Positions 3,844 to 63,141 of a stretch of 64,000 bases of DNA are shown in pieces. Origin of the DNA: an uncultured Bdellovibrio sp. (GTDB lineage: Bacteria > Bdellovibrionota > UBA1018); the NCBI GenBank assembly GCA_964490895.1, contig CAZBEI010000065.1, forward strand, positions 1,192 to 65,191, given 5' to 3'. The position numbers were made by a program, and so were the translations under genes. How positions within the stretch are numbered: the stretch's first letter is position 1; the number at the start of each line of letters is the position of its first letter. The notes under the pieces were generated by a model. The model was not told the origin of the DNA. It saw nothing but the letters and a program-made list of their open reading frames with translations, and did no database searches.

Positions 3844-4074
3844 ATGAAAAGGATTTACGAACTCGTCTATCCACCATACTCCTCGACTTTGATGGTTGCA
3901 GAAGGACTAGACTTAAAAACAGTCAAAGAAATCTGTGGTCACAAAGATATCTCCACACCAATGACGGTTGTGCACTTGAGTTGCAGATTGTATTACAAAT
4001 GTTGCAAAAGTATTCGCAATAGTGCCTGCTGCAACATGTCCAAAGCTTCGTCTTGTCAGTTAGTTTTTGAGTGA
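3844..4074 (+). pseudogene. Tyrosine recombinase (phage-type integrase) C-terminal remnant, frameshifted
   Basis: LMVAEGLDLKTVKEICGHKDIST matches the integrase fragment at 62665-63024. A 1-nt indel destroys the catalytic Tyr region. Confidence 0.6.
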
Positions 4075-4101
4075 GGGCAGAGTTCTGAACATGGTTAGAC
4101 A
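3885..4101. repeat. Left copy of an ~215-bp imperfect direct repeat (integrase 3' end plus ~40 bp downstream)
   Basis: Aligns with 62848-63061 with ~10 mismatches and a 1-nt indel. The last ~100 bp are identical, then the flanks diverge sharply at 4102 / 63062. Confidence 0.7.
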
Positions 4102-4185
4102 TCCGTTAGACATCCAAAAAATTAAATTTTTAGTAGTATTATTTAGTTTTTTATACTATTTAAAACTACAAAGAGGTGAGTCACT

Positions 4186-4398
4186 ATGGGATTGCCCCAA
4201 ACAGTACGTTTTGATGATGATTTAGAAAAGAGAGTGAAAAAATATTTAGTTCAAAATAAGATAAAATTCCCCCAGCTTGTGAGGCTTGCTCTGGAGAAAT
4301 TTATTTCGGAGCCTCAGACATTAACTTTTATGCCAACAGAAAAAAGAGCTGACCCAGTCAAGCCAAAGTCTGTGCATAGAGGTCCAGGGAGAATTTAA
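4186..4398 (+). CDS. Small ribbon-helix-helix (CopG/Arc-like) DNA-binding protein
   Basis: Strong RBS AGAGGTGA 8 nt upstream. The N-terminus QTVRFDDDLEKRVKKYLVQNKIKFPQLVRLALEKFI fits a beta-strand plus two-helix RHH pattern. Confidence 0.45.
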   Translation: MGLPQTVRFDDDLEKRVKKYLVQNKIKFPQLVRLALEKFISEPQTLTFMPTEKRADPVKPKSVHRGPGRI

Positions 4399-4416
4399 CA
4401 AACTTAGGAGGTTTTT

Positions 4417-4638
4417 ATGTTTATGTCTAAGTTAATGTCATGGTTAATTACAGTTGCAATAATGCTCGCTTCAATTGGAGTTCTGGGGAAGGCGACTCTG
4501 TACCTAGCCATAAAAGCAGCAGAGTCTTGTCAATATGAACAGTTTAGTCTTGCAAAGTGGAATAGAGCTTTAGTGGGGCCCGATACTGTGGGTGCTCATT
4601 CAAAAAACAGGAATAAAGACGCTAAAGGCCACCATTAG
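4417..4638 (+). CDS. Small single-TM membrane protein
   Basis: RBS AGGAGG 7 nt upstream. Hydrophobic helix LMSWLITVAIMLASIGVLG. Paired with the RHH gene. Confidence 0.4.
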   Translation: MFMSKLMSWLITVAIMLASIGVLGKATLYLAIKAAESCQYEQFSLAKWNRALVGPDTVGAHSKNRNKDAKGHH

Positions 4639-4809
4639 AGAGAATTCTCCTTTCCAAATGCTTCGAGCCGTTTTTGAATGCAGTCTCTGATTTCTCTAAA
4701 TGAACGAAGACGGTCTTCCTTGGTGGTGCCACTTGACCCAGGATCAGAAAAGGGCCTTTATCTTGGCACTTCCTAGGATATTGCTGCACGCAAAAGCCCG
4801 TGTTTGTCG

Positions 4810-5154
4810 TCAACTTTGAGTAAAGAGCTGATAAAACGGTGGAAATGTTGTGAGCAATCCAAATAATACTAATCCAAATATGATTTTGAGCCAAAATGTT
4901 TCATCTAACTCTCTTTTTTTCATAAAGGTGTTCAAGATAAGCCACCCCATGAAATAGATGAGCACTGCTACACTGGTTTTGCCTGAAAGAGGGCCCACCG
5001 GATCGTAAAAATTTAGAGCAGGCTTAATCATTTTTGGACTTACCTCAGCTAAAATGGTGAGGATGCCCAGAGACGCGCTGCCCATTCCTGCAGCCATCAA
5101 AGCGGCGATCGGTTTTCCGTTTGGAACTAATTGATGTCGAGTAGAAGTCATCAT
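4810..5154 (-). CDS. Hypothetical integral membrane protein
   Basis: 114 aa, three hydrophobic segments. Last gene of the tightly packed minus-strand operon 4810-10012. Confidence 0.4.
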   Translation of the reverse strand: MMTSTRHQLVPNGKPIAALMAAGMGSASLGILTILAEVSPKMIKPALNFYDPVGPLSGKTSVAVLIYFMGWLILNTFMKKRELDETFWLKIIFGLVLFGLLTTFPPFYQLFTQS

Positions 5155-5169
5155 TTTATTCTCCTTTTA

Positions 5170-5700
5170 TTAACGAGTTGCAGCGACTTTGTTGATAAAA
5201 GCTCCAAATAGACCAGCCACTGCAGCAGATGCAAAGGTGATAATGAGAAGCCAAAACAGGGTGCGTCGCATGCGTGGGAAATCCTTAATTCGCTCCCCAT
5301 AATATTGAGCGCTATAGGCGATAGAGGTTAGAAGCATTGGAGCGATCCATGCCACATGCTCTTTCCATTCCATTCCAAACTCATGCCATTCTTTCGTGTT
5401 TGGTTTTGAAAGAAGAAAGTACCGAGGAAAATTAAACAGCTCAGTCCCAGCTACAGGTTTTGCCCGGTACCAGACATAGACAACCCAAGTACCCGTGATC
5501 ACCGTGCCCCAGGCAATGAGGGCCATAGCCCAAAGCCCAAGTTTCAGTCTTCGGCTGTTTTCCATAGCCCCTTCGGGGGTGATCCAGGAAGCCTTGAGTT
5601 CATATAGATCTGCAATAGCGCCGCCAAAAGCCAGCAGAAAGACTGCACCTAAAACCATTCCATGCAACACTGTCCAAATTTCTCGAATACTTAATTCCAT
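5170..5700 (-). CDS. Hypothetical integral membrane protein
   Basis: 176 aa, four predicted TM helices, Trp-rich loops. 16-bp gap to the downstream gene. Confidence 0.45.
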   Translation of the reverse strand: MELSIREIWTVLHGMVLGAVFLLAFGGAIADLYELKASWITPEGAMENSRRLKLGLWAMALIAWGTVITGTWVVYVWYRAKPVAGTELFNFPRYFLLSKPNTKEWHEFGMEWKEHVAWIAPMLLTSIAYSAQYYGERIKDFPRMRRTLFWLLIITFASAAVAGLFGAFINKVAATR

Positions 5701-5719
5701 GTGAGACCCCCTTTTAAAT

Positions 5720-8275: not shown

Positions 8276-9316
8276 TTAAAAATCAAGCGCAAACATCAGA
8301 CGGAATAAATCATTGGGTTTTTCATCAAGTGCTTCGAGGTTCCATTGGTATTCGAGTATAAATTTCATAACGTCGATCGGAAATACAAAAGACAAATCAA
8401 AAGAGTGTGAATCTTGTTGGCTTTTTTGCTGTGAATTATTAATGTAAGTCCCATAGCGAATTCGAGGCTCAACAAAACCTAAAGCATTTGTTGCCAACTC
8501 AATATAATCTCCATATTTTCTAAAATTTCCTAATAATCCCTGAAAAATTTTAGCATCAGCAAAACCCAGTCCTAATTTTAGGTTTTTTAAAACCGGGAGA
8601 TTGACAAGATGATAATCAGTCCATAGGTCTCCTCCTAAAAGAACGAGAGGTTTTCCAATTTGCCACTGTGTGTAGTAACCCGATAGAATGAGTTTAATCT
8701 TTTCGAATGGAAATCCTGAGAGCCTGAGTCCCAGGGCCTGGGTGTTTGGGTCCGCGGGCAAGTTTAATTCTACGTCTTTGTCAGCTTTAGGTTCTCCAAA
8801 ACCATTGACGAGATAAGTATCTAAATTCCATTGATTTATCTCAAAGGTAAGTATGGCCCCATTTTCAGCCCAAATATTGGGAAACATCACTCCTTTTGCA
8901 GCAAATCCTTGTACACCCCCATAAAGATGATGGTAACGAGAAGTATCTCCAAAAGGGATCAGCACTTTTCCAAGATACGCTATTATTTTTTCAGTTGGCT
9001 TATAAATAATTTCTAAAAAACTTTTTGAGATGATTTCTCCTAAAAACGAAACTTTTTCTGAAGCATTGAGTTTTAAAAAAACTAAGAAATGATTATTTTT
9101 AAAGGTGTCATTTTGTCTGATCAGAGAAGGATTTTGATAGGGAGAAATTTCGTAAGACAAATCTAGTCTCCCTATCAATTTGAAAGGGATTTTTTCAGCT
9201 TGTGTGTTTACGTGTTTTGGAACTATTTCGGGAGAGTCTAGGTCTAAACTTTCCTCAGCCCATCCTTCAGAGAGCAGTAAAAAAACAAATAAGCTTAGTA
9301 AACCTATTTTTTTCAT
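8276..9316 (-). CDS. Putative outer-membrane beta-barrel protein
   Basis: Signal peptide, alternating amphipathic strands, C-terminal ..FALDF ending in Phe. Confidence 0.5.
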   Translation of the reverse strand: MKKIGLLSLFVFLLLSEGWAEESLDLDSPEIVPKHVNTQAEKIPFKLIGRLDLSYEISPYQNPSLIRQNDTFKNNHFLVFLKLNASEKVSFLGEIISKSFLEIIYKPTEKIIAYLGKVLIPFGDTSRYHHLYGGVQGFAAKGVMFPNIWAENGAILTFEINQWNLDTYLVNGFGEPKADKDVELNLPADPNTQALGLRLSGFPFEKIKLILSGYYTQWQIGKPLVLLGGDLWTDYHLVNLPVLKNLKLGLGFADAKIFQGLLGNFRKYGDYIELATNALGFVEPRIRYGTYINNSQQKSQQDSHSFDLSFVFPIDVMKFILEYQWNLEALDEKPNDLFRLMFALDF

Positions 9317-14226: not shown

Positions 14227-14230
14227 CTAC

Positions 14231-15842: not shown

Positions 15843-16022
15843 GCAGCATGAGGGTTCTTCGGCTGCACTCTGTTCAACAGCACGGTGAATATAGTATTTA
15901 AAACACGGCTCACATCGTGCCGAGATTGCCCAGACCATCGCTGTGAGGATCTTAAATTTTTGAGGCGCTTCCCCATCAGAAAAAATAGCCCTCTTCCTCA
16001 TTTGGTCAATAGGCGTTGGTAG
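15843..16022 (-). pseudogene. Fragment of a second carboxymuconolactone-decarboxylase (CMD/AhpD-like) gene, in frame immediately after the stop of the upstream CMD gene
   Basis: Translates to LPTPIDQMRKRAIFSDGEAPQKFKILTAMVWAISARCEPCFKYYIHRAV-EQSAAEEPSCCV. This is about 90% identical to 45253-45627 but lacks the first ~24 codons and has a 39-codon internal in-frame deletion. Confidence 0.55.
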
Positions 16023-29656: not shown

Positions 29657-30466
29657 ATGCAAAAAAGAGGGGCTGAGAGCCAAGAAATTGACTTCGACTG
29701 TGTAGATTTTCATCGCCGATGGGAAAGAGCACGTATTTCTGCTCTTAAAAAAGCATTAGATTTTATCCCACAGGCTCTAGATACGGAAAAAGAGTTTCAA
29801 CTTCTCACACTGGTAAGACCAGAATCTGAAAACCTTGTGTTAAAGCTTGTGTTTGACCATAGTTTTCAACTTGGAAAAAGTTTATCCCTGTTTTTGAAAC
29901 GCCCCATCACACTGAAAGAAATCAAAAAAATCATAACCTCATCAAACCAATCTTGTCACCAGGGAGTTTGGCAAGATAAAGGCTTTGCTTTTGTATTAGA
30001 ACGAGAGGGATGTGATTCACAAAAGAAAACAGGAAAGTTTTACTGCCAGTACTCTAGGGAAGCTATGGATGGTTTGACTATGGGGGCGTGCAAAGACGAG
30101 GGGTATGCACGCCACAAAAGCGTAGGGCATGGAGATGAAAACTGTGTTGATGTTTTCTACAGTGAAAATGCGAGATCCAATCAGTTTGGAGGCATTGCAA
30201 AAGAAATATCTGAAAAACTAGAGTTTCTGCAAGAAGAGTTTGAAAAAATGAACTTGAACCTCGTTTTTGATGGAATTCGAGAAGGTACGTTATTTTACCA
30301 ACTTACCTCTAAAAATAGCTCTCTGTGTGGAAGTTCTGAAGACTTATTTCACCGTACCATTCAAGAAAGAATTAAAAAAGAATTCCCACTCCTTATCGTT
30401 CAAAATAGAACACCAAAATCTGTATTGGCAAAAAACAAAAATCACGAGGTGTATCCCCATGCCTAA
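29657..30466 (+). CDS. Hypothetical Cys/His-rich cytoplasmic protein translationally coupled to the molybdoenzyme alpha subunit
   Basis: 269 aa, no signal peptide. Its stop overlaps the alpha start (ATGCCTAA). Start codon uncertain. Confidence 0.4.
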   Translation: MQKRGAESQEIDFDCVDFHRRWERARISALKKALDFIPQALDTEKEFQLLTLVRPESENLVLKLVFDHSFQLGKSLSLFLKRPITLKEIKKIITSSNQSCHQGVWQDKGFAFVLEREGCDSQKKTGKFYCQYSREAMDGLTMGACKDEGYARHKSVGHGDENCVDVFYSENARSNQFGGIAKEISEKLEFLQEEFEKMNLNLVFDGIREGTLFYQLTSKNSSLCGSSEDLFHRTIQERIKKEFPLLIVQNRTPKSVLAKNKNHEVYPHA

Positions 30467-35965: not shown

Positions 35966-36649
35966 ATGGAAAATAATTTTGCAAATAAAGTCTCACAGTT
36001 TGTCTTGGCTTCACTTATTACGTCTTACCCAGACACAGCTTTTCCCGATCATCTGTCAAAAATATCTCAAACTGAGCTTGATTGTAGTGAACTCATGGCA
36101 ATGCTCCACTCCTATTGCGAAAGCCAAATCAAATTAGATAACCTCAGGTCTGATTATATTGACATTTTTGATCGAGGAAAAAATCTAAACCCTCTTTATG
36201 AAACAGAATATGAGAGAGAGCGAACACAAGTAAAAGCCACAACGCTTTCAGATATTGCTGGATTTTATAAGGCGTTTGGATTTGACTTCGATGGCACAAG
36301 CTATCCAGAAATGGTGGACCATGTGTCTGTTGAGCTTGAGTTTTATGCCTTGTTGCTCATGAAACAAGCTTATCTTGAAGAAAATAAAACGACAGAGGGT
36401 GTGTCCATAACATTAGATGCTAGGAAAAAATTTCTAAAAGATCACTTGGGTCGCTTTGTTGGTTCCATTGCTGAACGGCCAGGGGTCAAAGAAAACCATT
36501 TTTATTCTCGTGTTTTTGATTGGTGTAAAGATTTGATTCAAACAGAATGCCAAGAACTTGGGGTCAAAGTGATTCCAGCCCAGTGGTTTTCAGTATCACA
36601 AAAGCCGCAAGATTCTGGCGAAATGTGCTGCGGGGATCATAAAAATTGA
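35966..36649 (+). CDS. TorD/NarJ-family redox-enzyme maturation chaperone (delta subunit)
   Basis: 227 aa, all-helical. The DIFDRG..YETEYE..EL.FY..L pattern is typical of the NarJ/TorD family. Confidence 0.65.
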   Translation: MENNFANKVSQFVLASLITSYPDTAFPDHLSKISQTELDCSELMAMLHSYCESQIKLDNLRSDYIDIFDRGKNLNPLYETEYERERTQVKATTLSDIAGFYKAFGFDFDGTSYPEMVDHVSVELEFYALLLMKQAYLEENKTTEGVSITLDARKKFLKDHLGRFVGSIAERPGVKENHFYSRVFDWCKDLIQTECQELGVKVIPAQWFSVSQKPQDSGEMCCGDHKN

Positions 36650-45252: not shown

Positions 45253-45627
45253 TCAAGCACAGCATGAAGGCTCTTCTGCTGAAGCACTTTGCCCAGATAC
45301 CGCTTCTTTATATGCTTTAAATGCTTTAATAGCCCACATTTCACCCACACAGCCACCCATAGTAGAGGCAATAGCTAAAAACTCACCAAGTTCTATTTCT
45401 GTAGTGCCAACTGCTACTGCGCGATGGATATAGTATTTAAAACATGGCTCACATCGAGCCGAGATAGCCCAAACCATCGCAGTGAGAATTTTAAATTTCT
45501 GAGGTACCTCACCATCTGAAAAGATTGCCTTCTTCCTCATTTGATCAATCAGTGCTGGGATTCCACTTGTGATTTTAGAAAAGTCCTTCATTAAGTTTAA
45601 GGCAGGATCAATTTTATTATAATCCAT
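45253..45627 (-). CDS. Carboxymuconolactone decarboxylase (CMD/AhpD-like) family protein
   Basis: 124 aa. CEPC redox motif. Last gene of the mer-like operon. Confidence 0.65.
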   Translation of the reverse strand: MDYNKIDPALNLMKDFSKITSGIPALIDQMRKKAIFSDGEVPQKFKILTAMVWAISARCEPCFKYYIHRAVAVGTTEIELGEFLAIASTMGGCVGEMWAIKAFKAYKEAVSGQSASAEEPSCCA

Positions 45628-45942: not shown

Positions 45943-46299
45943 TTAGGAAAAAAACCAGACAACCCACTGTGGGGAGGTTATTCCCAAGACAGCAACTGAA
46001 ACTCCAATCCAATAAAATATAACCATCTTTCTATATTTTTTGGGATCGGCACAAATGGACCCTGGTTCACAACTGTTACGTCTTCGATAAAGTGTAAAAC
46101 CAGCAACTCCAAAAAGCACTAAGACTAAAATTAACATGGGTACGCGGATCACATCAAATTTTGCCAGAGCTGCTGCACCAGATACTCCAAGAATTGTCAA
46201 AATGAGAGGACCTACACAACATAAAGGGACTAGCATAGAAGCAATAATTCCAGTTGTCACAAGCCATCCAGATTTATTTCCGACTTTGCTCTTGTTCAT
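45943..46299 (-). CDS. merT: MerT-like metal transport membrane protein
   Basis: TM1 Cys pair LVPLCCVGPL and cytoplasmic loop Cys pair SCEPGSIC as in MerT. About 118 aa from MNKSKVG. Confidence 0.6.
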   Translation of the reverse strand: MNKSKVGNKSGWLVTTGIIASMLVPLCCVGPLILTILGVSGAAALAKFDVIRVPMLILVLVLFGVAGFTLYRRRNSCEPGSICADPKKYRKMVIFYWIGVSVAVLGITSPQWVVWFFS

Positions 46300-46568
46300 C
46301 TCGTTCCAACTCCCGCTGCTCGCAGTTCCTTTTCGCTCACGGTACCACTTATACAGCAATCAAGAAGTCTACCGTCTACAACGATAGCAGGAACTTTTGT
46401 AATGCCATATTTTTTTGCTTTATCTCTACACTCATTGGTGGCACATCCAGCATTAAGGTCGTAGATTACGACATTGCATGATGAACATGCTATTTTTTTA
46501 ACTAGGGCCACAACGGGCTCACAAACCGGACAGCCAGAAGTGAAAACCTCAATTTTTCTATTAGCCAT
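46296..46568 (-). CDS. Thioredoxin/glutaredoxin-like small redox protein
   Basis: 90 aa. N-terminal CPVC motif. First gene after the merR-divergent promoter. Confidence 0.55.
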   Translation of the reverse strand: MANRKIEVFTSGCPVCEPVVALVKKIACSSCNVVIYDLNAGCATNECRDKAKKYGITKVPAIVVDGRLLDCCISGTVSEKELRAAGVGTR

Positions 46569-53227: not shown

Positions 53228-53932
53228 CTACAAACTAGTCACAATACCTAGCAAAAAAGAATGACCAGAGAAATTCTCGCCAGTGACTGGAGAAAATATG
53301 TGACGATAATCAACCATCAATTGAGTTTTATCCGTACCCATCCAAGCAAGGTTATGGCGGATACCGAGCGTCGCATGATAAGCCAACGAACCTCCTCGTC
53401 TCTGAGCTCCGTCAAGGTCTGAAGACTGTAAATAGGTGTAATATCCCACCCCAAGTTCAACGACTGGCATCGCCCATTTCATTATTGGAGCATAGTCTCC
53501 CAAGTAGACTAACCCAAAAGTCAGCGGTAACAGTGAGAGCCGACTGGGGCCTGCGGGTATGCCATCTGCGAAGCTTGCGTTGCCTATGTGTGAACTGTAA
53601 CCCAAGTCTACCCGTACACCCCAGCTTCCGAGAAATGTAATCGGAGTCGTTTCCCAGCCGATTTCTAAAGCAAACGCGGAATCATTTTTAGGATAATAAA
53701 AATTATAAGCGTCTCCAGTTAAGGTTGTTCCATTGAGCGATCTTGTTCCGATTTGAAATTGTAAGGTAGAAAAATGACTTGAGTCAGCTGAGGACAATTG
53801 CTCTAGGTAAACGACGTTTTGAGAGGACTTCGAAGCTCCTGGATCTAGAAGTAGGGGCAATTTTTCATTCCCAGCAGCCAATGACCCAGCAGCCGATAGA
53901 GCAACAAAACTCATTACGAGAACCCGATTCAC
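53228..53932 (-). CDS. Small outer-membrane beta-barrel protein
   Basis: Signal peptide, eight or more amphipathic strands, aromatic-rich C-terminus. Confidence 0.45.
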   Translation of the reverse strand: MNRVLVMSFVALSAAGSLAAGNEKLPLLLDPGASKSSQNVVYLEQLSSADSSHFSTLQFQIGTRSLNGTTLTGDAYNFYYPKNDSAFALEIGWETTPITFLGSWGVRVDLGYSSHIGNASFADGIPAGPSRLSLLPLTFGLVYLGDYAPIMKWAMPVVELGVGYYTYLQSSDLDGAQRRGGSLAYHATLGIRHNLAWMGTDKTQLMVDYRHIFSPVTGENFSGHSFLLGIVTSL

Positions 53933-55266
53933 TTTGCCACCTTCAGATTAGCAATCTCGCCAAGGCCCTCGTGAAAAATTAAGCCTTCGATATTTTTACC
54001 GGCATGAAGCCCCTTTAATGTTAGGGGATAGGCACCGGCCGTTTGAGCGACCAATCGGCGTGTATAAATATTAAATTCAACACGAGAAAATGGGAGTTCC
54101 ACGTACTCAGTCGAGCCAAAAGCACCAAAATACAATCTCATGTTTCCGGTAATTGAAATCCCGTCAGGTTGAGAAAGATCCTCTGAGCTAATGAAATTCG
54201 CCGTGACCCTTTCGGGCAAATGGGATTGAGTATTCGTATTTTCAAGTTTCCCCTGGTAGATCCCAGCCAGAGACTGAATTTTTTCGTATCCAAGAGGAAA
54301 TAAGGGATAAGATGATCCGACTGAAAAAATAACTTCTCCTGTTTCTCCCATAAAACGGTTACTCCAGTGTCCTCGCATGTCTGCGCCCACAAACTGTCCA
54401 AAGAGTGAGACATTGAGACCCTCTTGTCTCAGAGTGAGTTGCCCACTGATCGGGTTAAAGGACACATCATCGTAGGAATAAGTCGTTTGCTCTGTGGAGT
54501 TATCATCCCCAAAAATCAATCTCAATGTCGCTCTCACGTTGATAGCGTCAGGAAGTTTGACTGACGTACTCAGAGCCAACTTCGCCAATTGGAGTTGGTT
54601 TGATTTATCCCAAAGGGCAAGGCCTCTGTATTCGCCCTTAATATGATGGAGGGGGTGATCAGAAATTTTGCCTGTTCCACCCGATGATACCGAGCGAACG
54701 AGTTCCAGGCTCCCCTGCTCGGAAGCACTAGGAGCAGACCAAGTTCCATGCAAGACCGCTCTGTTAGTAGAAACATCAAGATAGATGAAAATGTCTTTAT
54801 ATTGGCTATTATTCACAACCAAGTTCATCTTTGCAGTATTCAGATCAAAATCACCCTTACCAACAGAGAAACTCACAAACTCAGAGCTAGAGTCATTTGG
54901 CAAATTTGGCGGCGAATTTGGAGCCGCTTCTGAAAAATTAAAGCGAATGAACCCCGACAATGTTGGAACAAGAATGGGATCCACCTGTCCATCTTGAGTT
55001 TCAGGAACATTTTTAATTTCTAAATTCAAGGTTATATTTTCTTGAGTTCCGGCAGATCGTATAAACTTTCCGTGGTATTCCCCAGCGACTTGCTGGAGCT
55101 CTTTAGTTTTTGTCTGCGTTTTGAGCTGATTTCGCTCTCTTAAACTTTCTCTTTCGCTTTTGTTATTGGTCCCACATGAAACAAAAAAGACAATAGAAAT
55201 GCTTATTAGGACGCAGTGAAGCACAGATTGGATGATACTTGCTTTTACTTTCATACTTATGGCCAT
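53929..55266 (-). CDS. Lipoprotein with two copies of a novel ~100-aa module (paralog 1 of 3)
   Basis: Lipobox FVSC. Repeated blocks LRLIFGDDNSTEQTTYSYDDVSFNPISGQLTL and MRLYFGAFGSTEYVELPFSRVEFNIYTRRLVAQT. Confidence 0.5.
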   Translation of the reverse strand: MAISMKVKASIIQSVLHCVLISISIVFFVSCGTNNKSERESLRERNQLKTQTKTKELQQVAGEYHGKFIRSAGTQENITLNLEIKNVPETQDGQVDPILVPTLSGFIRFNFSEAAPNSPPNLPNDSSSEFVSFSVGKGDFDLNTAKMNLVVNNSQYKDIFIYLDVSTNRAVLHGTWSAPSASEQGSLELVRSVSSGGTGKISDHPLHHIKGEYRGLALWDKSNQLQLAKLALSTSVKLPDAINVRATLRLIFGDDNSTEQTTYSYDDVSFNPISGQLTLRQEGLNVSLFGQFVGADMRGHWSNRFMGETGEVIFSVGSSYPLFPLGYEKIQSLAGIYQGKLENTNTQSHLPERVTANFISSEDLSQPDGISITGNMRLYFGAFGSTEYVELPFSRVEFNIYTRRLVAQTAGAYPLTLKGLHAGKNIEGLIFHEGLGEIANLKVAK

Positions 55267-56087
55267 TTCTGCATTGTGACTCGTCCCACTTTTCCGAGTC
55301 CATCGGTATACAAGTCTCCCTCCGCTGTTGCATCGTAGGACATATACCCCTTAAAAGTAAGACCGTAGTTTTCGGTTTTAGCGGTCAAAAACCGACTGTA
55401 AGAATTAAACTGTACGTCCGTAAATTTTATTTCTATGTATTCTAGAGAATTGAAACTTCCAAGATACAATCTCAAATTTCCATTAATTGCTAACTTCGGT
55501 GTAGGGCCAGAGAGATCTTGGGTTGCAACAAATGACATTGTCAATCTTTCCGGAAGACTGGATTGGGGATTTGTGTTTGCAAGTATACCACGATAATATC
55601 CAGACAACTCTTTGACGTTTGTTGATGCAAGCGGTGGAACAGGAAAGTTGTCTTTTGTTGCTATAAATTTTCCAACCCGACCGACAATCGAAGAATACCA
55701 GTCCCCCTCAATTTGGCCCCCCTTAAGAATGGCTACGGCACTCACATCGCTTCCGTCGTTGGTAAATACCAGTTGTCCAGTGATGGGATTAAGGGGCACG
55801 TTCGCAAATTCGTAAGTTAGAAACTCATTCGAATCGGCTGCGCCAAAGATAATCCTCATATTAGCAGAAATTTTGAATTCTCCGCTCGGATTTGTTGTTT
55901 TTAAGGTGATCAGTCCGAACTGATAATAGTTAGTACCTTCATGCTGAAAGATAACCTTATAAAGTCCCGCAACTGAACTCACGTCCTGCGAGATAGCATA
56001 TTGAGAAAAGACAAGGGCAACCAAAAAAGTCGCTGAAAAAATTAAACGAGCCAAAGCTGAGCGTGACACTAATATAAAACGAAACAT
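55257..56087 (-). CDS. Secreted protein with two copies of the same novel module (paralog 2 of 3)
   Basis: Start at MFRFIL with RBS GAAGGGGGG. Blocks MRIIFGAADSNEFLTYEFANVPLNPITGQLVFT and LRLYLGSFNSLEYIEIKFTDVQFNSYSRFLTAKT. Confidence 0.5.
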   Translation of the reverse strand: MFRFILVSRSALARLIFSATFLVALVFSQYAISQDVSSVAGLYKVIFQHEGTNYYQFGLITLKTTNPSGEFKISANMRIIFGAADSNEFLTYEFANVPLNPITGQLVFTNDGSDVSAVAILKGGQIEGDWYSSIVGRVGKFIATKDNFPVPPLASTNVKELSGYYRGILANTNPQSSLPERLTMSFVATQDLSGPTPKLAINGNLRLYLGSFNSLEYIEIKFTDVQFNSYSRFLTAKTENYGLTFKGYMSYDATAEGDLYTDGLGKVGRVTMQKWP

Positions 56088-56194
56088 AGAACCCCCCTTC
56101 GCATGCATTCACCCTTGACGTATACCTATCTTGGGGTATATGTCAAGGCTAAGAAAAAATGCTGTAAAAAGAGAAAAACTAGGGGGGGTTTTAA

Positions 56195-56644
56195 ATGAAA
56201 TTTAAAAAATTAAGTGATTTGATCTCTGGGGTCTTTATTGTGGGAATACTGAGTTTAAGTATTTCAGCCTTAGCAGCTGATCTCCATTGCAGTATTTGTA
56301 GCATGAAAATCCCACAGAGTTCAAAAAACCATCTTGTCCTAAAAAACTTGGATCCCAAGAAACCATCTCTTCATGCTTGCTCACTATCTTGTGCGACTAA
56401 GGCCAGAAAATATGACCCAAAATACGCTCAAATAGAGGTTTCTAATTTTAATCATCCTGACGAATTTCTCTCTGGTGAAAAAGCTTTTTTTCTCATGAAG
56501 AGTGAAAAAATTCAGGCCGATCTTGGCCCAATGGCGATGCTCCCTTATTTTGGTGCTTTTAGTACAAAAGCAGAAGCAGAGGCAGCTCAAAAAAAATATG
56601 GGGACGGAGTCATTGTCCAAGGATTTGAGGGTGCTTTAAAATGA
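56195..56644 (+). CDS. nosL: NosL-family copper-binding lipoprotein (Cu chaperone)
   Basis: Signal peptide. CSICSM aligns to the NosL CxxCxM motif. C-terminal A.LGPMAMLPYFGAF..AEA.AAQKKYGG..V.F resembles NosL. Confidence 0.55.
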   Translation: MKFKKLSDLISGVFIVGILSLSISALAADLHCSICSMKIPQSSKNHLVLKNLDPKKPSLHACSLSCATKARKYDPKYAQIEVSNFNHPDEFLSGEKAFFLMKSEKIQADLGPMAMLPYFGAFSTKAEAEAAQKKYGDGVIVQGFEGALK

Positions 56645-57120
56645 GAACCCGCACACTTTTTTCGGCGGTTTTTTTGGGTCTGTTATTGGGTTGTGGTCCT
56701 ATGAATTCTCCCAAAAAAATAAACTCAGATGATCAAAATAAAAAAAAATCTTCTCCTACCGCCTCTGGAGCTACTCGAGTTTCAAAAAATAACCAGTTCT
56801 ATGTTTATGCAACACCTGTAAATCCATCTGCGTCTAATATACCAAGCTCCACGCGTCTAGAGATAGGCGAAAATACTTATCTCTTTCGGTTTTCGCATTG
56901 CGAAGATCTAAAAAATCCATCTGATCAAGCGACCCTCAAAATTACTTATTGGATGCCAGAGATGCCAGACATGGGCAAATCTGATGGAGTGGCCGTTCGT
57001 CAAACAGATGGATCTTATACATCGACACTTTTCTTTGGGATGCCAGGCCATTGGGAAATCACACTCAAAATGCAAGATGGAAATATACAGGATGATTATG
57101 TCTTTGATGAAAATTTCTGA
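56641..57120 (+). CDS. YtkA/FixH-like Met-rich copper-binding lipoprotein
   Basis: Lipobox LLGC. WMPEMPDMG Met motif and GMPGHWEITL block. Confidence 0.5.
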   Translation: MRTRTLFSAVFLGLLLGCGPMNSPKKINSDDQNKKKSSPTASGATRVSKNNQFYVYATPVNPSASNIPSSTRLEIGENTYLFRFSHCEDLKNPSDQATLKITYWMPEMPDMGKSDGVAVRQTDGSYTSTLFFGMPGHWEITLKMQDGNIQDDYVFDENF

Positions 57121-58057
57121 TATTTCGAAAAGCACTCTTTTGTTTTCATTTGTTTTCATTTGTTTTTCTGTACCTTCCTACGCTTCAAGCTGTTGTGCTG
57201 GAAGTGGAGGGCAAAGTCTTTGTGTTTTACCTTCGGAACAAAGCTACCAATTGGGGGCATCCAGTGCTTACCGGTCTATCGAAGGGCGCTTTGATCCTTA
57301 TGGACAATATACTGCCAATAAAGAGGGTGATCGCATTCGCTCCATTGTCACAGTTCTTGGAGCTGCCTATCGCCTTAATCATGATTGGCAGTTGGGTCTG
57401 AGTGTCCCCATTACAAGTAATCAGCAAAGTTTTTCTGGAAAAAACCATGGGGCAACCTCTCTGGGAGACCCTGCCTTTGAAGCGAGGTATACTTTTTTGG
57501 AGGACCTAAGCTTTCTCACATTTCGACCCGGACTTACTTTCTATGGAGGAGTTCGTTTGCCTGTTGGAAAATCTATTTATAATTCGACAGACCCTTACAA
57601 TGCAGATGCTGTGGGTGATGGAACAACGACTTTTCATATGGGGCTGAATGCCTCAAAAATCTATAGCCCAATAAAACTCACTTTTGATAGTGCATTTTTT
57701 TATCCGTTCAGTAAGAAAGTTACCGAAATGCGGGGAGACCCTGTTTCATCCCCCTACCCACTTAAAAGTGGAAACAAAGTGCAACTTCTAGAGAGCGCTG
57801 GTTATCTGGTCAATGAACACTGGAGTGGCACTTTAGGTGTAAAGCAGCTTTGGATTTTCGAAAGCTCTCTCAATTCAGAGCCTGTATTGGGCTCTGCGGG
57901 GCGTCTTTTTTCGAGTCTCATCACACTTAATTATTTTCACAACGCTTCTTTAGGTTTGGGTCTCACTTATGAAACAGCATTTCCATTTTACCATTACCTA
58001 GCGAATCAGCCCTATGTCCAACAAATTTCTTTGGCCGCAACTTATGGAGGATTTTAA
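57107..58057 (+). CDS. Outer-membrane beta-barrel channel protein
   Basis: Start at MKISDISKS with signal peptide; the track ORF starts at 56984. Amphipathic strands. Ends ..AATYGGF. Confidence 0.5.
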   Translation: MKISDISKSTLLFSFVFICFSVPSYASSCCAGSGGQSLCVLPSEQSYQLGASSAYRSIEGRFDPYGQYTANKEGDRIRSIVTVLGAAYRLNHDWQLGLSVPITSNQQSFSGKNHGATSLGDPAFEARYTFLEDLSFLTFRPGLTFYGGVRLPVGKSIYNSTDPYNADAVGDGTTTFHMGLNASKIYSPIKLTFDSAFFYPFSKKVTEMRGDPVSSPYPLKSGNKVQLLESAGYLVNEHWSGTLGVKQLWIFESSLNSEPVLGSAGRLFSSLITLNYFHNASLGLGLTYETAFPFYHYLANQPYVQQISLAATYGGF

Positions 58058-58495
58058 ATGAAACAATCAACACTGAATGTCTTTGGGCTTAGTAACTGGT
58101 TAGCAGTTACTCTAATTTTTGGAATTTTCAGTCTGGGATCCAACTCTGGCTGGACTGACTCAAATCCTATAAAGTTTGATCCTGCAGAGCCAAGTGCGGG
58201 TGGGAACTATCAAGTTTCAGGCAATTGGTTAGAACTCAAGCGGGGCTGGAATGTCTTAACTCTTCAAATTGTAGATTCTAACTCCAATCCTGTCACTGGG
58301 GCAGAGCTAAAAGTTATCTACGACATGGTTGGAATGCCCATGAATCCTCCCAATAAGCCAGTAGAGGAAAAGGGGGAGGGTCGTTACAATAAACAGGTTT
58401 TTTTAGGGATGCGAGGTCAATGGAAATTTGATCTGACGATCCACAAAGACACTGTAGAAGACACGCTCTCACACATTGAAAACGTTAAAAATTAG
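58058..58495 (+). CDS. Second YtkA/FixH-like Met-rich lipoprotein (paralog of 56641-57120)
   Basis: YDMVGMPMNPP and GMRGQWKFDLTI blocks parallel the first copy. Confidence 0.5.
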   Translation: MKQSTLNVFGLSNWLAVTLIFGIFSLGSNSGWTDSNPIKFDPAEPSAGGNYQVSGNWLELKRGWNVLTLQIVDSNSNPVTGAELKVIYDMVGMPMNPPNKPVEEKGEGRYNKQVFLGMRGQWKFDLTIHKDTVEDTLSHIENVKN

Positions 58496-58532
58496 AAATA
58501 TTGAGAGTGAGTATTGGTTCTAAGGAGGTTTT

Positions 58533-60131
58533 ATGAAAGTTCTCTATTTTTTATTTTTGCAGCTTTTACTGTCCACTATAATTGCACCCACAAATGCACA
58601 GACTAGCGAAGGCTCCGTATTTGGAAGATATCTGGGTGTTCTTGAACACGAAAGAACGGGAGAACAGCAGTTAGCTAAACTTGATTTTATACTGGACCGA
58701 AATGAGGGTTCAACGCTTGCTTTGAAAGCAATTCTGACATTGCATTTTGGAGATTATACAAGCCAAGAATACGCTGCATTTCATTTTAATCAGGTTCAAT
58801 TCAATCTGCTGACTTCTAGTCTTGTCTTTGATCAGCCTGATCAAGACGTGAGAGTTGTTGTAGAGCGATTCGAGGGTGGAGTGCTTTCGGGCACGTTAAA
58901 ATCAAATATTTTTGGAACCGTAGGAAAAATAAAATTACAAAGAGATGAGGGCCAGAGTGCTGTTCTAAGCTCACTCCCTTTGATTGAACCCGTGCAGGGC
59001 GAATACAAGGGTAAATGCAATAACAAAGAGTCCTGGTTAAGACTCTTTACCTATCGAGCTACCGAAGATATTACTAAAACTGGAAACCCATTTGGGGCCT
59101 ATGAAATAGTGGGTCACATTGCCCAATATGATTTTGCTCTTTGCGGGCCAGACCCTGAAAGACCTTGTGTTTTAGCAGAGTATAATGCAGGTTCTTATGA
59201 TTATTTTTCGCAGGAGCTTAAGCTGATCGGAAGACTGAGCCGACTAAAATGTAAAAAAATAGGATCACAGTTGAATTGTGATTCTTGTCAATTTCAAAGA
59301 GTTTCGAATGAAAACGAATTAAAAAACCTACACCCACCCACATCAGTACCAGAACTTTTTGTATTAAGCTCTGATAGTTCTCCTCACCCATCACAACCGA
59401 TGTCTATCAGTGGCGAATACGAAGGATATTTGTATCATGAGTATTTGAACACCTATCAAAAAGCACGAATTGATCTTTCAACTTTTCAAACAATAGAAAA
59501 TGGAGAAAGTCACTTCAAAGTATCGGCAGCCGCACGGCTTATTTTTGGCAATGGCAATAAAGAAGCCGAGGAGATTTTGAGTTACCGCTTTGATAATGTG
59601 GACTACCCAAACCCAACCCGACCTTTTCAACTTGTATTTGCTCGTTCCTCAGCTGATGTGGATGCTATCATTCGGATTTCGTCTTTTAAGGATGGAGTGA
59701 TTAAAGGCGAATGGTTTTCTCTCATGTTTGGCCGAGTGGGTGCTTTTGAACTCCGGAAAAAAGAGTTAGAGCAGCTACCCACCCCAAAACAACTCATGAC
59801 AGGTCTTACAGGTGAGTATAAAAACAGCACGTGGTTCATTAGTCTTGCTGCTCGATTAGGAAGAACACCTATTAATACAGATAATCCATTTTTCCCTTTG
59901 CAGTTGGAAGGGTTTGTTGGTCCTAATAATAGATTTTTTAGAAAAGATGACATCCAAAGAGGAAGTTATGATTTTTACACTGGAAAATTTGCATTACTCT
60001 ATGACAATAATTATTTACTAACCGGAACTCGATTTCAAGATGGAAATTTTTCCCTTTCTTACGTTGCCAATAAGTTTGCTGTATTGGCTCAGAATTTTTA
60101 TCCAGATCTTTATAAAAAAATAAATGAATAG
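58533..60131 (+). CDS. Secreted protein with two copies of the novel module plus a Cys-rich insert (paralog 3 of 3)
   Basis: RBS AAGGAGG. Blocks LTLHFGDYTSQEYAAFHFNQVQFNLLTSSLVFDQ and ARLIFGNGNKEAEEILSYRFDNVDYPNPTRPFQLVF. Confidence 0.5.
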   Translation: MKVLYFLFLQLLLSTIIAPTNAQTSEGSVFGRYLGVLEHERTGEQQLAKLDFILDRNEGSTLALKAILTLHFGDYTSQEYAAFHFNQVQFNLLTSSLVFDQPDQDVRVVVERFEGGVLSGTLKSNIFGTVGKIKLQRDEGQSAVLSSLPLIEPVQGEYKGKCNNKESWLRLFTYRATEDITKTGNPFGAYEIVGHIAQYDFALCGPDPERPCVLAEYNAGSYDYFSQELKLIGRLSRLKCKKIGSQLNCDSCQFQRVSNENELKNLHPPTSVPELFVLSSDSSPHPSQPMSISGEYEGYLYHEYLNTYQKARIDLSTFQTIENGESHFKVSAAARLIFGNGNKEAEEILSYRFDNVDYPNPTRPFQLVFARSSADVDAIIRISSFKDGVIKGEWFSLMFGRVGAFELRKKELEQLPTPKQLMTGLTGEYKNSTWFISLAARLGRTPINTDNPFFPLQLEGFVGPNNRFFRKDDIQRGSYDFYTGKFALLYDNNYLLTGTRFQDGNFSLSYVANKFAVLAQNFYPDLYKKINE

Positions 60132-60141
60132 GAGAGTCGAT

Positions 60142-61152
60142 ATGAGGTTTAAATTTTTTGAAAATGCTATTGCCTTTACAGTAAGCTGCGTTTTTATCCT
60201 ATTATTGTCTCAAGAAGGGTTTACTTACCCCAGCATAAGAACATACCTTGGAAAAAGCTTTCTTGGAAAATCAGCCGAAAATAAAAAGCAGTGCGAAGAC
60301 CTTTTGCCAAAATTAGTTGCAACAATCGATCATGTTAAAGAATCAGGGATTAAAGTGGTTCATAGTCAATGTAGGGAAAATGAAAATTCCTATCAAATAG
60401 AGATTGATTATGGATATCAGCTCTCGGATCCACTCTATTCTGATATTCTTACACCCAAATCTCAAAATTCATGCTCCACAGATGTTCTAGATGTTAGACA
60501 AAGGCTATCGGAGGCAAAAAACAGTCTTTATTTACTAGATGTGTATTGCAAACCTGATGGAGAAAACGAAAGAATTCAAATCGATTACTTTAATCCAGAA
60601 CATTTAGTTTTAGTTCAAATAGAATATCCATTGCAGTTTTCTAAGCATAGTGACTGCGAAGCAGAGTCCTCTCGTCTATTCAAATCTATTTCTAGTAGCG
60701 TGATTTTCGCACTTCGAAACTATTGCAGAAGGGTCACCTATAGTACCACCGGAGAGATTTCGTTTCGCTCTATCGTTGATTATTATAAGCCTATCTACAA
60801 ATCCATTAGAACTGAAATCGTGCTAAGCACAACGGACAAAACCGAATGTGTCCACCAGTTAGAGGTTGTGAAGGCAAAATTCAATCAGCATAAGTTCACA
60901 GATATTTTTTTGGCTTGCACTTTAGAAGGTGGTTTGTTTATGGGGGTTTTGGCTTTTGTAGAAACTACGGATAGAAGTTTAAGCTTTGTTTCGCCTGAGC
61001 ATTTTTATGACAAGAAGACTTGCGAACAAAAAGGAGAACTCATGTCACGGTACTATGAAAAATTAAACACACCTGTTGTGCATTGGAGTTGTACACAGCA
61101 GTACGTCAATGGCTCATATGATCTATTGTTTTTTTATTACTATCAAATTTAA
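60142..61152 (+). CDS. Secreted hypothetical protein (Cys-rich)
   Basis: Start at MRFKFF with RBS AGGAGAG; the track ORF starts at 60124. Signal/TM anchor. No recognised domain. Confidence 0.4.
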   Translation: MRFKFFENAIAFTVSCVFILLLSQEGFTYPSIRTYLGKSFLGKSAENKKQCEDLLPKLVATIDHVKESGIKVVHSQCRENENSYQIEIDYGYQLSDPLYSDILTPKSQNSCSTDVLDVRQRLSEAKNSLYLLDVYCKPDGENERIQIDYFNPEHLVLVQIEYPLQFSKHSDCEAESSRLFKSISSSVIFALRNYCRRVTYSTTGEISFRSIVDYYKPIYKSIRTEIVLSTTDKTECVHQLEVVKAKFNQHKFTDIFLACTLEGGLFMGVLAFVETTDRSLSFVSPEHFYDKKTCEQKGELMSRYYEKLNTPVVHWSCTQQYVNGSYDLLFFYYYQI

Positions 61153-61213: not shown

Positions 61214-61729
61214 TCAATTAAGAGCCCCCTCTTTTTTTAGAAACTTTGATCTATTTATAGCAGTTAAAATATTGCCTATGGCAACTTTTCCACTCCAACT
61301 GCCAACAAGATTTCTTTCGCGATTAAACAGAAAAATTTGTGGAACTGATTTTATTTCACCAGAAAGCGTCTTTGATGCGTCTTTACTTGGAATCCATTGT
61401 TCATATTGAGGCTGAAAATGTGAGACAAACGCTTCTATTTCTTTTTTTCTAGATTGAATAGGAATCCCTAAAATAAAAAGCCGCTTTTCTTCATGGTTGA
61501 TACTTTTTAGGAGTGCGTTTAACTCTTGAACCTCTTGGCCACATGGGGCACAAAATGGGCTCCAGAATTGAAGCAACACAAAATCTTCTTTGATCTTGTG
61601 GAGTTGGGTTCTGATTTCTGGTTGCTCATTGATTTTAATTGGGCTGTCTTGCACAGATGCCTTTAGTTCTAAAGCTGAAAAAACAATTAAACCACAAGTA
61701 AGGCTCATCACTAGATTTTGAAATCTCAC
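61214..61729 (-). CDS. TlpA/ResA-like periplasmic thiol-disulfide oxidoreductase
   Basis: Signal peptide and FWSPFCAPCGQE CxxC thioredoxin-fold motif. Confidence 0.65.
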   Translation of the reverse strand: MRFQNLVMSLTCGLIVFSALELKASVQDSPIKINEQPEIRTQLHKIKEDFVLLQFWSPFCAPCGQEVQELNALLKSINHEEKRLFILGIPIQSRKKEIEAFVSHFQPQYEQWIPSKDASKTLSGEIKSVPQIFLFNRERNLVGSWSGKVAIGNILTAINRSKFLKKEGALN

Positions 61730-61916
61730 ATGGTTTTTTATCTGGGTTATAGAAGTTTGTAAAGTTCAATACTTTACGCATTATTTGGGGATAAAAAATG
61801 GGCATTCCTCAAAAACAGAAACAATATTTGCTATCAGCTCAATCAACGCATCCAGGGCCCCTGCCAGGGGTGGGCCTTGAAACTCTGGATTTCCTGCTAA
61901 GGAAGATTATTATCTA

Positions 61917-62270
61917 TCAAAAACTAATTCCAAATTTTTTGAGCAATGAAATATAACACATGTATCCAATTAACATGAGAACACAAGAAAGGGTCATTGC
62001 CCATTCAAATCGAACACCATTTCTCAGCAAAATAGGAAGACTTAATAAAAATAAAAATGACGGGAGAATTGCCCAAAAAATATTTATGGAAAGATCGGCT
62101 ACTTTTCCAGTGTCTTTGGTATCTGAGTAAAGCCATAACATGGTCATGAGCGAAGTCATTGGTAAAGCTGCTAAAATCGCAGCAAAAGCGGATGACCTTT
62201 TTCCAATTTCAGAAACTGCCGAAATAATTAAAGCTGAAATGACAGTTTTAAGAATAAATCTCATTAACAA
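61917..62270 (-). CDS. Hypothetical small membrane protein
   Basis: 117 aa, three or four TM helices. Confidence 0.4.
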   Translation of the reverse strand: MLMRFILKTVISALIISAVSEIGKRSSAFAAILAALPMTSLMTMLWLYSDTKDTGKVADLSINIFWAILPSFLFLLSLPILLRNGVRFEWAMTLSCVLMLIGYMCYISLLKKFGISF

Positions 62271-62311
62271 TACCTCCCCTGTTTCTTTTTTTTCACATGA
62301 ACCTCCTCGAC

Positions 62312-62641
62312 CTAAAAATGATGAGCATAAATTAGTCCTGTCTCCTCCAGCTTCAAAAGGAGGTCCCTTCTTTGTTGAGCAAGATTTTTTAGACGTTGCC
62401 TTTTGTATGGATGGATCTTGGCAATATCAAAAACGACTAACGCCAGTTCTGTAACTTTTGGATCTGGAGAAGTCTTGAGCAGTTCAAGCCACTTGATATT
62501 TTTCAAGGAGATGTGGGACTGCTTTAAAAACCCAAAGATCTCATCTTTCTGCTCGATAGTGTCACGTATCTCAATAGGCATCCGATTGCAATCTTTACAA
62601 ATATGATTCCTGTGACCACCACCCAAAGGGGAAAAGGTCAA
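62312..62641 (-). CDS. Hypothetical protein
   Basis: 109-aa ORF. Has a CKDC motif; no recognised domain. Confidence 0.3.
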   Translation of the reverse strand: MTFSPLGGGHRNHICKDCNRMPIEIRDTIEQKDEIFGFLKQSHISLKNIKWLELLKTSPDPKVTELALVVFDIAKIHPYKRQRLKNLAQQRRDLLLKLEETGLIYAHHF

Positions 62642-62664
62642 GGTATGTCCCTTGTAACCCCTTT

Positions 62665-63024
62665 TTGTATGCTGAACTAAGCCAGCTGATTCAAGCTAAA
62701 AGGCTTTTGCCAGAGCAAACCTTATTCAGCTCTGAAAAGGGGACTCCGATTGATCATGATAATTTTGTGGGCCGATATTTTGAAAAAGACCTCAAAGATG
62801 CGGGGTTAAAAAAAATTCGGTTTCATGACTTGCGACATACGGGAGTGACTTTGATGGTTGCAGAAGGACTAGACTTAAAAACAGTCAAAGAAATCTGCGG
62901 TCACAAAGATATCTCTACAACAATGAAGTATGTGCACTTAGTAGCAGATTGTATTAAAAATGTTGCAAAAGTATTCGCAATAGTGCCTGCTGCAGCATGT
63001 CCAAAGCTTCGTCTTGTCAGTTAG
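62665..63024 (+). pseudogene. Tyrosine recombinase/integrase C-terminal fragment (N-terminally truncated)
   Basis: Catalytic-domain blocks RFHDLRHTGVTLMVAEG and GHKDISTTMKYVHL (active-site Arg, His and Tyr). Only ~119 aa, with an upstream in-frame stop. Confidence 0.7.
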
Positions 63025-63061
63025 TTTTTGAGTGAGGGCAGAGTTCTGAGCATGGTTAGAC
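62848..63061. repeat. Right copy of the ~215-bp direct repeat
   Basis: Aligns with 3885-4101. Confidence 0.7.
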
Positions 63062-63091
63062 AAGCATGACTTGCTAAGCCCTTGAAATCAT

Positions 63092-63141
63092 TGGAGCCGA
63101 CGGCCGGAATCGAACCGGCGACCTACGCTTTACGAAAGCAT
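63092..63141 (-). tRNA. tRNA-Thr(CGT) 3' fragment (anticodon arm, variable loop, T-arm, acceptor 3' strand, CCA); no D-arm or 5' acceptor strand, att-site-like remnant
   Basis: The reverse complement reads ATGCTTTCGTAAAGCGTAGGTCGCCGGTTCGATTCCGGCCGTCGGCTCCA. T-arm GCCGG/TTCGATT/CCGGC, anticodon loop TTCGTAA. The upstream sequence cannot form a D-arm. Confidence 0.5.

Follow-up and report, generated by a model that had tools for sequence, protein, structure and literature searches.

Truncated tyrosine integrases beside a lone tRNA-Thr(CGT) 3' block: possible serial integration and decay at one tRNA gene in an uncultured Bdellovibrio sp.

How did some 59 kb of redox- and metal-related genes come to lie between two broken members of one integrase family and next to a piece of a tRNA gene? 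The question is raised by 64,000 nt of DNA from an uncultured Bdellovibrio sp. (assembly GCA_964490895.1, contig CAZBEI010000065.1, positions 1,192 to 65,191; this whole stretch is called the window, and positions below count from its first letter). A preliminary description made from the letters alone had read nearly all of it as one decayed island brought in by a single tRNA-targeted integration, with two ~215-bp imperfect direct repeats as its attL and attR attachment (att) sites. On balance, the comparisons reported here favour another history, in which the window is a composite of integrative-element DNA that arose by repeated integration at one tRNA-Thr(CGT) gene followed by decay. The features that carry this reading lie at and behind the two repeats:

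3885-4063, plus strand: integrase remnant 1, limited to residues ~327-386, frameshifted and without the catalytic Tyr
4064-4115, plus strand: integrase-proximal att arm of remnant 1, with GTTAGACATCC twice in tandem at 4094-4115 and no tRNA block behind it
62608-63024, plus strand: integrase remnant 2, the C-terminal ~140 of ~386 residues
63025-63091, plus strand: 67-nt spacer between integrase and tRNA, with a single GTTAGACA site at 63055-63062; the repeat ends at 63062
63092-63141, minus strand: 50-nt 3' block of tRNA-Thr(CGT), from the CCA to the 5' strand of the anticodon stem

Of the two repeats, the left one spans 217 nt (3885-4101) and the right one 216 nt (62847-63062); they lie in direct orientation and are 94.9% identical, with 10 mismatches and one indel. 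As had been described, they are the 3' ends of tyrosine-integrase genes, each copy consisting of 178 nt of coding sequence and 38 nt of non-coding sequence downstream, and the sharp divergence of the flanks was confirmed as well, since similarity ends abruptly at both sides of each copy. Both genes are indeed truncated, with ~60 residues left in the first and ~140 in the second. Remnant 1 is frameshifted by a 1-nt insertion and has Val in place of the catalytic Tyr (TTMKYVHL to TPMTVVHL); it is joined directly, at an arbitrary codon, to the end of an AbiEi gene plus 18 codons. Some tblastn alignments of the integrase extend left to 3817, and nucleotide similarity upstream of 3885 is near chance. 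Remnant 2 matches only profile positions 91-168 of 172 in Pfam Phage_integrase and corresponds to residues ~240-386 of relatives with ~386 residues. It keeps the HxxR box (box II) and the catalytic Tyr and has lost box I with the first catalytic Arg as well as the N-terminal domains, and the statement that an RHRY region is retained is therefore right for the HxxR and Tyr boxes and wrong for box I. No N-terminal integrase remnant was found anywhere in the 64-kb window, and neither copy has the complete catalytic and N-terminal DNA-binding domains of a P4-type integrase. Across the retained part, identity is 50-67% to proteins P0002-P0016 and to 80 metagenome loci, and both copies are pseudogenes of the P4-type tRNA-targeting family with the domains Int_N, Phage_int_M and Phage_integrase. 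Two Logan contigs, L001 and L002, are 99.9% identical to the window at 59.7-62.9 kb, and the same strain occurs in the public runs from which they come (ERR4904393 and ERR3478687); L001 breaks 30 nt inside the right repeat, as expected because assembly graphs branch at repeats, and adds nothing on the flanks.

What does this integrase family use as its attachment site? A protein search and a metagenome scan yielded 83 related integrase loci, among them the full-length homologues that it had been suggested to look for (~375-405 codons; where annotated, with Int_N, Phage_int_M and Phage_integrase domains). At 50 of the 83 loci an intact tRNA gene is convergent with the integrase gene and lies 61-209 nt after its stop codon (median 113); these tRNAs are mostly Met, with Gly, Arg and one Thr-CGT also represented. 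In most loci the spacer contains tandem 8-11-nt repeats of GTNGACNATC type. Moreover, three whole small elements of 3.5-8.5 kb (L055, L088, L095) carry at their two ends direct repeats of 35-53 nt, which reach from just past the tRNA CCA to the anticodon loop or stem. The right end of the window has the same build. Its 50-nt tRNA-Thr block matches the att blocks of the family in size and end-points and lies 29 nt past the right repeat and 67 nt past the integrase stop codon, and arm-type repeats are present between integrase and tRNA, as in the family, with two tandem sites in the left copy and one in the right. Since the 67-nt spacing falls into the range of the relatives, the right junction looks native, and the comparison supports the right end as a genuine integrase/tRNA integration junction.

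The tRNA itself is broken, as the preliminary description had noted. The block is without a D-arm and a 5' acceptor strand, and the adjoining sequence beyond the anticodon stem is not tRNA-like. Its identity was settled by reading and by comparison with the intact tRNA-Thr(CGT) of locus L124; Rfam at relaxed thresholds gave only weak T-arm matches to transfer-messenger RNA (tmRNA) models around the fragment. ARAGORN and Rfam found no intact tRNA in the window, no second tRNA-Thr block was found there with up to 3 mismatches allowed, and a structural search of the whole 64 kb found no second T-arm-like hairpin, whether of tRNA-Thr or of other tRNAs. The block is the only att-type block in the window and forms the junction between the ~59-kb unit on its left and a parA element on its right. 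Of the features by which tRNA-borne islands are classically recognised, a tyrosine integrase adjoining the tRNA 3' end is present at the right end, while within the window the tRNA 3' segment does not recur at the opposite end of the island, nor is there an intact reconstituted tRNA at the integrase junction.

These observations bear directly on the single-integration model, in which one ~59-kb island entered tRNA-Thr(CGT) once and the ~215-bp repeats are attL and attR. Direct repeats do bracket mobile-looking cargo, the right copy does lie near a tRNA fragment, and the flanks do diverge sharply at the repeat ends. However, the repeats are made of integrase coding sequence and spacer and stop 29 nt before the tRNA block. 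As the att repeat of the family is the tRNA block, which is present once here and lies outside the repeats, the 215-bp repeats are not an att duplication. A single integration would also leave an intact tRNA beside the integrase, as in the 50 relatives, and not a 3' fragment such as the one found here. Finally, an AbiE locus unrelated to the integrase directly adjoins the left copy, and a divergence of 5%, including loss of the left Tyr codon, is unlike a duplication generated in one step. The model is contradicted by the sequence and very improbable. The repeats are better read as homologous parts of successive elements than as attachment sites, and the only activity left to them would be that of a substrate for homologous recombination, by which the 59 kb could be deleted.

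Why then is the 5' half of the tRNA missing? It is best explained by a second element, because a gene family encoding ParA and a RepO-like protein sits to the right of the block. The following features belong to this side of the junction:

63142-63605, plus strand: conserved arm and leader of the parA element, as compared with parA relatives
63145-63157: TAGAC/TTAGAC beside the block
63270-63289: GCTACAC repeat in the arm
63397-63411: mini-open reading frame (mini-ORF) MDPP-stop with a strong ribosome-binding site, ~160 nt upstream of parA
63414-63447: terminator-like hairpin (-22 kcal/mol, z = -2.95), followed by only four U; conserved
63606-64000, plus strand: parA, first 131 codons (Pfam AAA_31, CbiA, ParA), the first gene of an element here called B

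The parA gene reported for this side is thus borne out by its Pfam domains; of the terminator reported before it, the -22 kcal/mol hairpin stands, while the short U run made it fail a simple terminator scan. ParA homologues with 62-89% identity come from Bdellovibrionota, mostly from metagenome-assembled genomes (MAGs) of Bacteriovoracaceae, and several Bdellovibrionota MAGs carry 2-3 copies per genome. The next ORF is of one Phage_rep_O-like family at 29 of 32 parA loci, and the genes further downstream vary. At fourteen parA loci an intact tRNA or tmRNA gene of one of seven kinds (His, Arg, Cys, Gln, Asn, Leu and tmRNA) precedes parA on its strand by ~400-500 nt (by 648 nt in L040), and conserved element sequence starts directly after the CCA. 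L005, L006, L010 and L020 share with the window a tRNA 3' block on the minus strand that borders directly on a homologous arm with GCTACAC-type repeats. Read by eye, the block comes from Pro-GGG in L005, from what is apparently Arg-CCG in L006 and from Pro-CGG in L010, with that of L020 left unassigned, next to Thr-CGT in the window; left of the block the five loci have unrelated DNA. Read in the orientation of the tRNA, the order is element arm, 3' block, outside DNA, which should represent an attR-type junction with the element on the parA side.

The motif TTAGAC, which belongs to the integrase-side arm, occurs again 10 nt past the block on the parA side, which speaks for a second element there. 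Together with the neighbourhood of the block, the motif also brings in another possibility, namely that in the 66.8-kb source contig a single element is seen after excision, or as a plasmid-like molecule. The unbroken order of integrase, P' arm, tRNA block, P arm and parA would then be the attachment site of a circular molecule (attP), which its truncated integrase would bar from the chromosome and which ParA and the RepO-like protein would maintain. An integrase beside a 3' block without a 5' half, with element-type arms on both sides and TTAGAC flanking the block on both sides, has the structure of an attP. The 2.76 kb of contig outside the window would approximately hold the rest of parA, a RepO-like gene (1.2-1.5 kb) and the end of a gene for a SagB-like protein found at the left edge of the window, and the element family has partition and replication genes. 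Nevertheless, an attP is unlikely. The four other loci with block, arm and parA border unrelated, non-integrase DNA, which indicates that the family is integrated there, and parA is near no other integrase locus. The cargo, with a cytochrome oxidase, molybdenum cofactor (Moco) synthesis and aromatic amino-acid catabolism, and the uniform composition look chromosomal, a second integrase fossil within a plasmid would need a separate explanation, and megablast of 44-64 kb against PLSDB gave no match.

How could serial integration have produced the window? In a first step an island, A2 (~4.1-63.09 kb), would have entered the 3' part of tRNA-Thr by means of a P4-type tyrosine integrase, whose gene would normally be convergent with the intact tRNA at a distance of 60-200 nt. 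In a second step element B, consisting of the arm, the leader with mini-ORF and terminator, parA and the RepO-like gene, would have entered the same tRNA. Thereby the 5' half, and with it the functional tRNA, would have been moved to the far end of B beyond the window, leaving the original 50-nt 3' block between the A2 integrase and the B arm. Thirdly, the A2 integrase would have lost its first ~240 codons, and because of this loss A2 would no longer be able to excise. Fourthly, a sibling integrase would have left its 3' end and arm as a fossil in the left 217-bp repeat, which most likely marks where an even older element of the same array, A1, ended. AbiE, mer remnants and the SagB-like gene would belong to A1, and the att block behind this fossil and A2's own left end would have been deleted. 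Decayed mer paralogues in the left segment are what would be expected of sibling islands. Also in keeping with this history, the window contains no second tRNA block, no second parA or RepO-like gene and no integrase N-terminal remnant. We infer the order of these events, and the integration of B with an intact tRNA-Thr at its far end, from the arrangement of the single block, the truncated integrases and the arm that recurs beside tRNAs.

Several observations weigh against this reconstruction. The far end of B and the intact tRNA-Thr would lie beyond the DNA seen here; the source contig has only 66,762 nt. Among 83 integrase and 34 parA loci, the parA module and the integrase family are never within 10 kb of each other, and that B used a related integrase is therefore conjecture. 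In the loci of the closest ParA relatives, L003 and L004, the same arm is joined to the plus-strand 5' half of a tRNA-Pro at one fixed position just after the anticodon loop (anticodon GGG in L003, ~8400-8470, and TGG in L004, ~1660-1730), which a simple 3'-block model does not predict; L005 (~860-915) has a minus-strand tRNA-Pro 3' block in the opposite orientation, and from these loci the family seems to occur on both sides of the anticodon loop. No att block or parA-type arm was found near ~4.1 kb, so that the left repeat could be a fossil within a single element comprising A1 and A2. GC content is 0.36-0.45 throughout in 2-kb windows, and GC, skews and tetranucleotides are without a step; the flanks available for this comparison measure only 3.9 and 0.9 kb and are themselves of mobile type, and composition was taken as evidence in neither direction. 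Lastly, none of the related loci compared shares the gene order of the cargo.

The left boundary depends on how the first 3.9 kb are read:

3-1598, minus strand: partial gene for a SagB-type dehydrogenase-domain protein (Pfam Nitroreductase; NCBIfam TIGR03605, 96.9 bits against a cut-off of 78.4)
1670-2858, plus strand: scrambled mer remnants, comprising a glutaredoxin-like piece, a MerR C-terminal fragment and a MerC-HMA fusion
1774-2037, plus strand: the MerR C-terminal fragment (Pfam MerR-DNA-bind)
2040-2858, plus strand: the MerC-HMA fusion (Pfam MerC, HMA)
3262-3834, plus strand: AbiEi antitoxin gene (Pfam AbiEi_4, AbiEi_1, AbiEi_3_N)

The first gene runs off the window and is part of the left segment A1, outside the bracketed region. 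It had been called a nitroreductase; the encoded protein, which does match Pfam Nitroreductase, is of the SagB type by TIGR03605. The scrambled mer remnants were recovered by Pfam as described; they are paralogous to an intact mer cluster at 45.2-47.1 kb, with a direct repeat (D2) of 77% identity between 1670-1811 and 46298-46439. After AbiEi, 18 codons at 3831-3884 with an overlapping start and stop (ATGA) may be a stub of the AbiEii toxin gene cut by the repeat. The segment 1-3884 thus looks mobile itself, with a SagB-type gene, decayed mer genes and AbiE. Remnants of parA, of a RepO-like gene or of an integrase N-terminus were not found near the left repeat. A former element boundary may lie at 4.1 kb, or else the 217 bp could be a fossil inside one larger island that ends beyond the window.

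To the right of it follows the cargo, annotated by Pfam and NCBIfam searches:

4116-62607: cargo of A2, in the order
first, ApbE and FMN_bind proteins and a sigma54 two-component pair
second, cytochrome c and a NirK-like copper protein, then a CMD-family protein and a pyridoxal phosphate (PLP) decarboxylase
third, an aa3-type cytochrome oxidase, then Phe/Tyr catabolism (PAH/HPPD/HGD) with a LysR regulator
fourth, at 30267-36649, an alpha/beta/gamma/delta complex of the type II dimethyl sulfoxide (DMSO) reductase family
fifth, the full set of Moco synthesis genes and a MOT1 molybdate transporter, which adjoin the Mo enzyme, then a nitronate monooxygenase
sixth, MerR/T/P, CusCBA, YtkA-like and Pfam-less proteins and a thioredoxin-like protein

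Does this cargo form one respiratory module? It had been presented as a coherent set for nitrogen-oxide respiration, which overstates the case: the cargo is redox- and metal-flavoured and mixed, because aerobic respiration (the aa3 oxidase), Phe/Tyr catabolism and a PLP decarboxylase are also present. The NirK-like copper protein scores 197 bits, below the equivalog cut-off of 296 bits. The DMSO-reductase-family complex has an alpha subunit of 1224 aa, an Fe-S beta, an EB_dh-type haem gamma and a NarJ-like delta subunit, and as every subunit falls far short of the subfamily and equivalog cut-offs of NCBIfam, the complex is a divergent Mo enzyme to which no substrate was assigned. A direct repeat of 143 nt with 83% identity (15877-16019 and 45416-45558), one copy of which lies inside the CMD-family gene of the mer cluster and the other as an orphan between the NirK-like and a second CMD-family gene, is a further sign of mosaic, recombined cargo. 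Downstream of CusCBA, at 53228-61152, runs a series of Pfam-less and YtkA-like domain proteins. One of these, a Pfam-less protein of 532 aa (58533-60131), has more than 60 homologues, all with at most 43% identity; those in loci L134 and L135 adjoin RND/OEP efflux genes, and the protein is probably, by this gene neighbourhood, an uncharacterised accessory of metal efflux systems. These loci give no information on boundaries. Inside the A2 cargo no ParA, RepO-like protein, integrase N-terminal remnant or tRNA block was found. A conjugation module (relaxase, coupling protein, type IV secretion system) had no Pfam or NCBIfam match among the window ORFs scanned, a set that left out about ten small ORFs, and the module expected of an integrative and conjugative element (ICE) is missing from that set.

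Could the window also be ordinary chromosome? The cargo would then be vertically inherited, two dispersed integrase pseudogenes would lie 59 kb apart by chance, and only a short stretch at ~62.6-63.1 kb would be of mobile origin. The flat GC and tetranucleotide profile is what such a history would give, truncated members of the integrase family are common in related MAGs, and a Moco cluster lies near parA in the Bdellovibrionaceae MAGs L032 and L033. Against this stand the Mer and Cus clusters, the AbiE stub, and the mer and CMD fragments left by duplication and decay, which are typical of island DNA. Furthermore, both flanks that might serve as a core reference are themselves of mobile type, and the native spacing between integrase and tRNA implies that at least one element entered here. 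Vertical inheritance of the cargo is accordingly quite unlikely. With mer, CusCBA, AbiE, integrase fossils and paralogous gene fragments in it, the DNA left of the junction very probably belongs to islands. The earlier notion of a decayed island thus survives as far as the decayed integrases, the right tRNA junction and the island-type DNA are concerned, and fails where the repeats were taken as its att ends.

How does serial integration and decay compare with known systems? P4-like tRNA-targeting tyrosine integrases use an att identity block that extends from the anticodon loop to the tRNA 3' end. The relatives of the window's integrases resemble them in domain set, in convergence on an intact tRNA, in the 35-53-nt block and in tandem arm-type repeats; the copies in the window differ in being pseudogenes, at most 38% of the protein being retained. 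In elements of the pSAM2 type, the actinomycete integrative and conjugative elements (AICE), and of the pKLC102/PAPI-1/ICEclc type, a partition gene is found at one end and the integrase at the other. An att-proximal parA, insertion at tRNA genes, an adjacent replication-initiator-like gene and large variable cargo recall these elements. However, no conjugation backbone gene (relaxase, type IV secretion system or other) was found within 10 kb of parA in 34 loci, and the parA end was never linked to an integrase end.

For other systems it has been described that serial integration displaces older elements towards the inside and leaves integrase fragments and incomplete tRNAs behind (bioRxiv 10.1101/2020.12.28.424599; PMC5704250). 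In arrays of cis-mobilisable elements (CIMEs) and ICEs of the ICESt1/ICESt3 type, the incoming element integrates at the occupied att site or target-gene end of a resident that has lost its integration genes (PMC5704250). Such accretion yields a composite island with a hybrid internal att site, and a CIME by definition keeps attL and attR (PMC5704250). The window is similar in that a decayed, integrase-dead element adjoins a second element at the same target gene. It differs in that only one att block survives, because of which the 59-kb unit could not be mobilised in cis by site-specific excision, and in the lack of conjugation genes among the scanned ORFs. The tycheposons of Prochlorococcus are likewise tRNA-seeded islands with a tyrosine recombinase, a replication module and variable metabolic cargo (bioRxiv 10.1101/2020.12.28.424599). 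Common to both are tRNA seeds, older elements pushed inward, and fragmented integrases and partial tRNAs within islands, a likeness of architecture; here the phylum is Bdellovibrionota and the module at the end is ParA with a RepO-like protein behind a leader of mini-ORF and terminator.

The best-supported reading is accordingly that the window shows a known kind of structure, tandem accretion at a tRNA hot-spot, in a little-studied phylum. If so, a Bacteriovoracaceae-like bacterium may have gained and then fixed ~59 kb of accessory redox and metal-resistance DNA, since excision would have become impossible once the integrase was dead and a second element had covered the att site. More generally, repeats of integrase 3' ends can mimic att sites, and island boundaries drawn from such repeats need a real att block as a check.

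The island itself would thus be ordinary hot-spot accretion, whereas the tRNA-adjacent module of parA and RepO-like gene with its mini-ORF leader may merit separate study, and the family to which it belongs is possibly undescribed. It could be imagined, with some reserve, that the module is the hallmark of a family of plasmid-like integrative elements, as yet undescribed, in Bdellovibrionota that combines four properties: 1) the elements would target the anticodon stem-loop in a wide range of tRNA and tmRNA genes; 2) insertion on either side of the loop would be possible, so that the same arm may adjoin a complete tRNA, its 3' block or its 5' half; 3) the module would be gated by a mini-ORF ending in Pro-Pro-stop, or by a bare start-stop, and then a terminator; 4) serial accretion and decay would build large metabolic islands, with the 59-kb block of respiratory and metal-resistance genes as one fossil of this process, in a predatory lineage. 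Taken jointly these properties make a tentative picture, possible rather than likely. A scan of IMG/VR for ParA gave no matches.

The leader recurs at other loci. A mini-ORF with a strong ribosome-binding site, directly followed by a GC-rich hairpin with a short U run, lies upstream of parA also at L003-L005, L012, L013, L018, L020, L022, L025, L034 and L040. The mini-ORF MDPP-stop is common to the window, L003, L004 and L020, and other parA loci have MDPPE-stop, MPPS-stop, a peptide ending in KPP-stop, or a bare ATG-stop before the hairpin. From its layout, the pair of mini-ORF and hairpin looks like a leader-peptide/terminator attenuator of the partition and replication module.

Distant parA/RepO-like pairs, with 65% ParA identity, lie just downstream of a moeB-like gene in L030 (3012-6516), L032 and L033 (1-9200), which are Pseudobdellovibrionaceae and Bdellovibrionaceae MAGs. 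In L032 and L033 the pair also adjoins a full Moco cluster whose internal order is that of the window, and in L030 a distant tyrosine integrase follows 0.5 kb after the pair. At L040 (7770-8360), a second copy of the last 16 nt of the tmRNA (1 mismatch) lies ~220 nt after it and is followed by the arm and parA; by its position this duplicate resembles a small att remnant, in tandem, at a further hot-spot.

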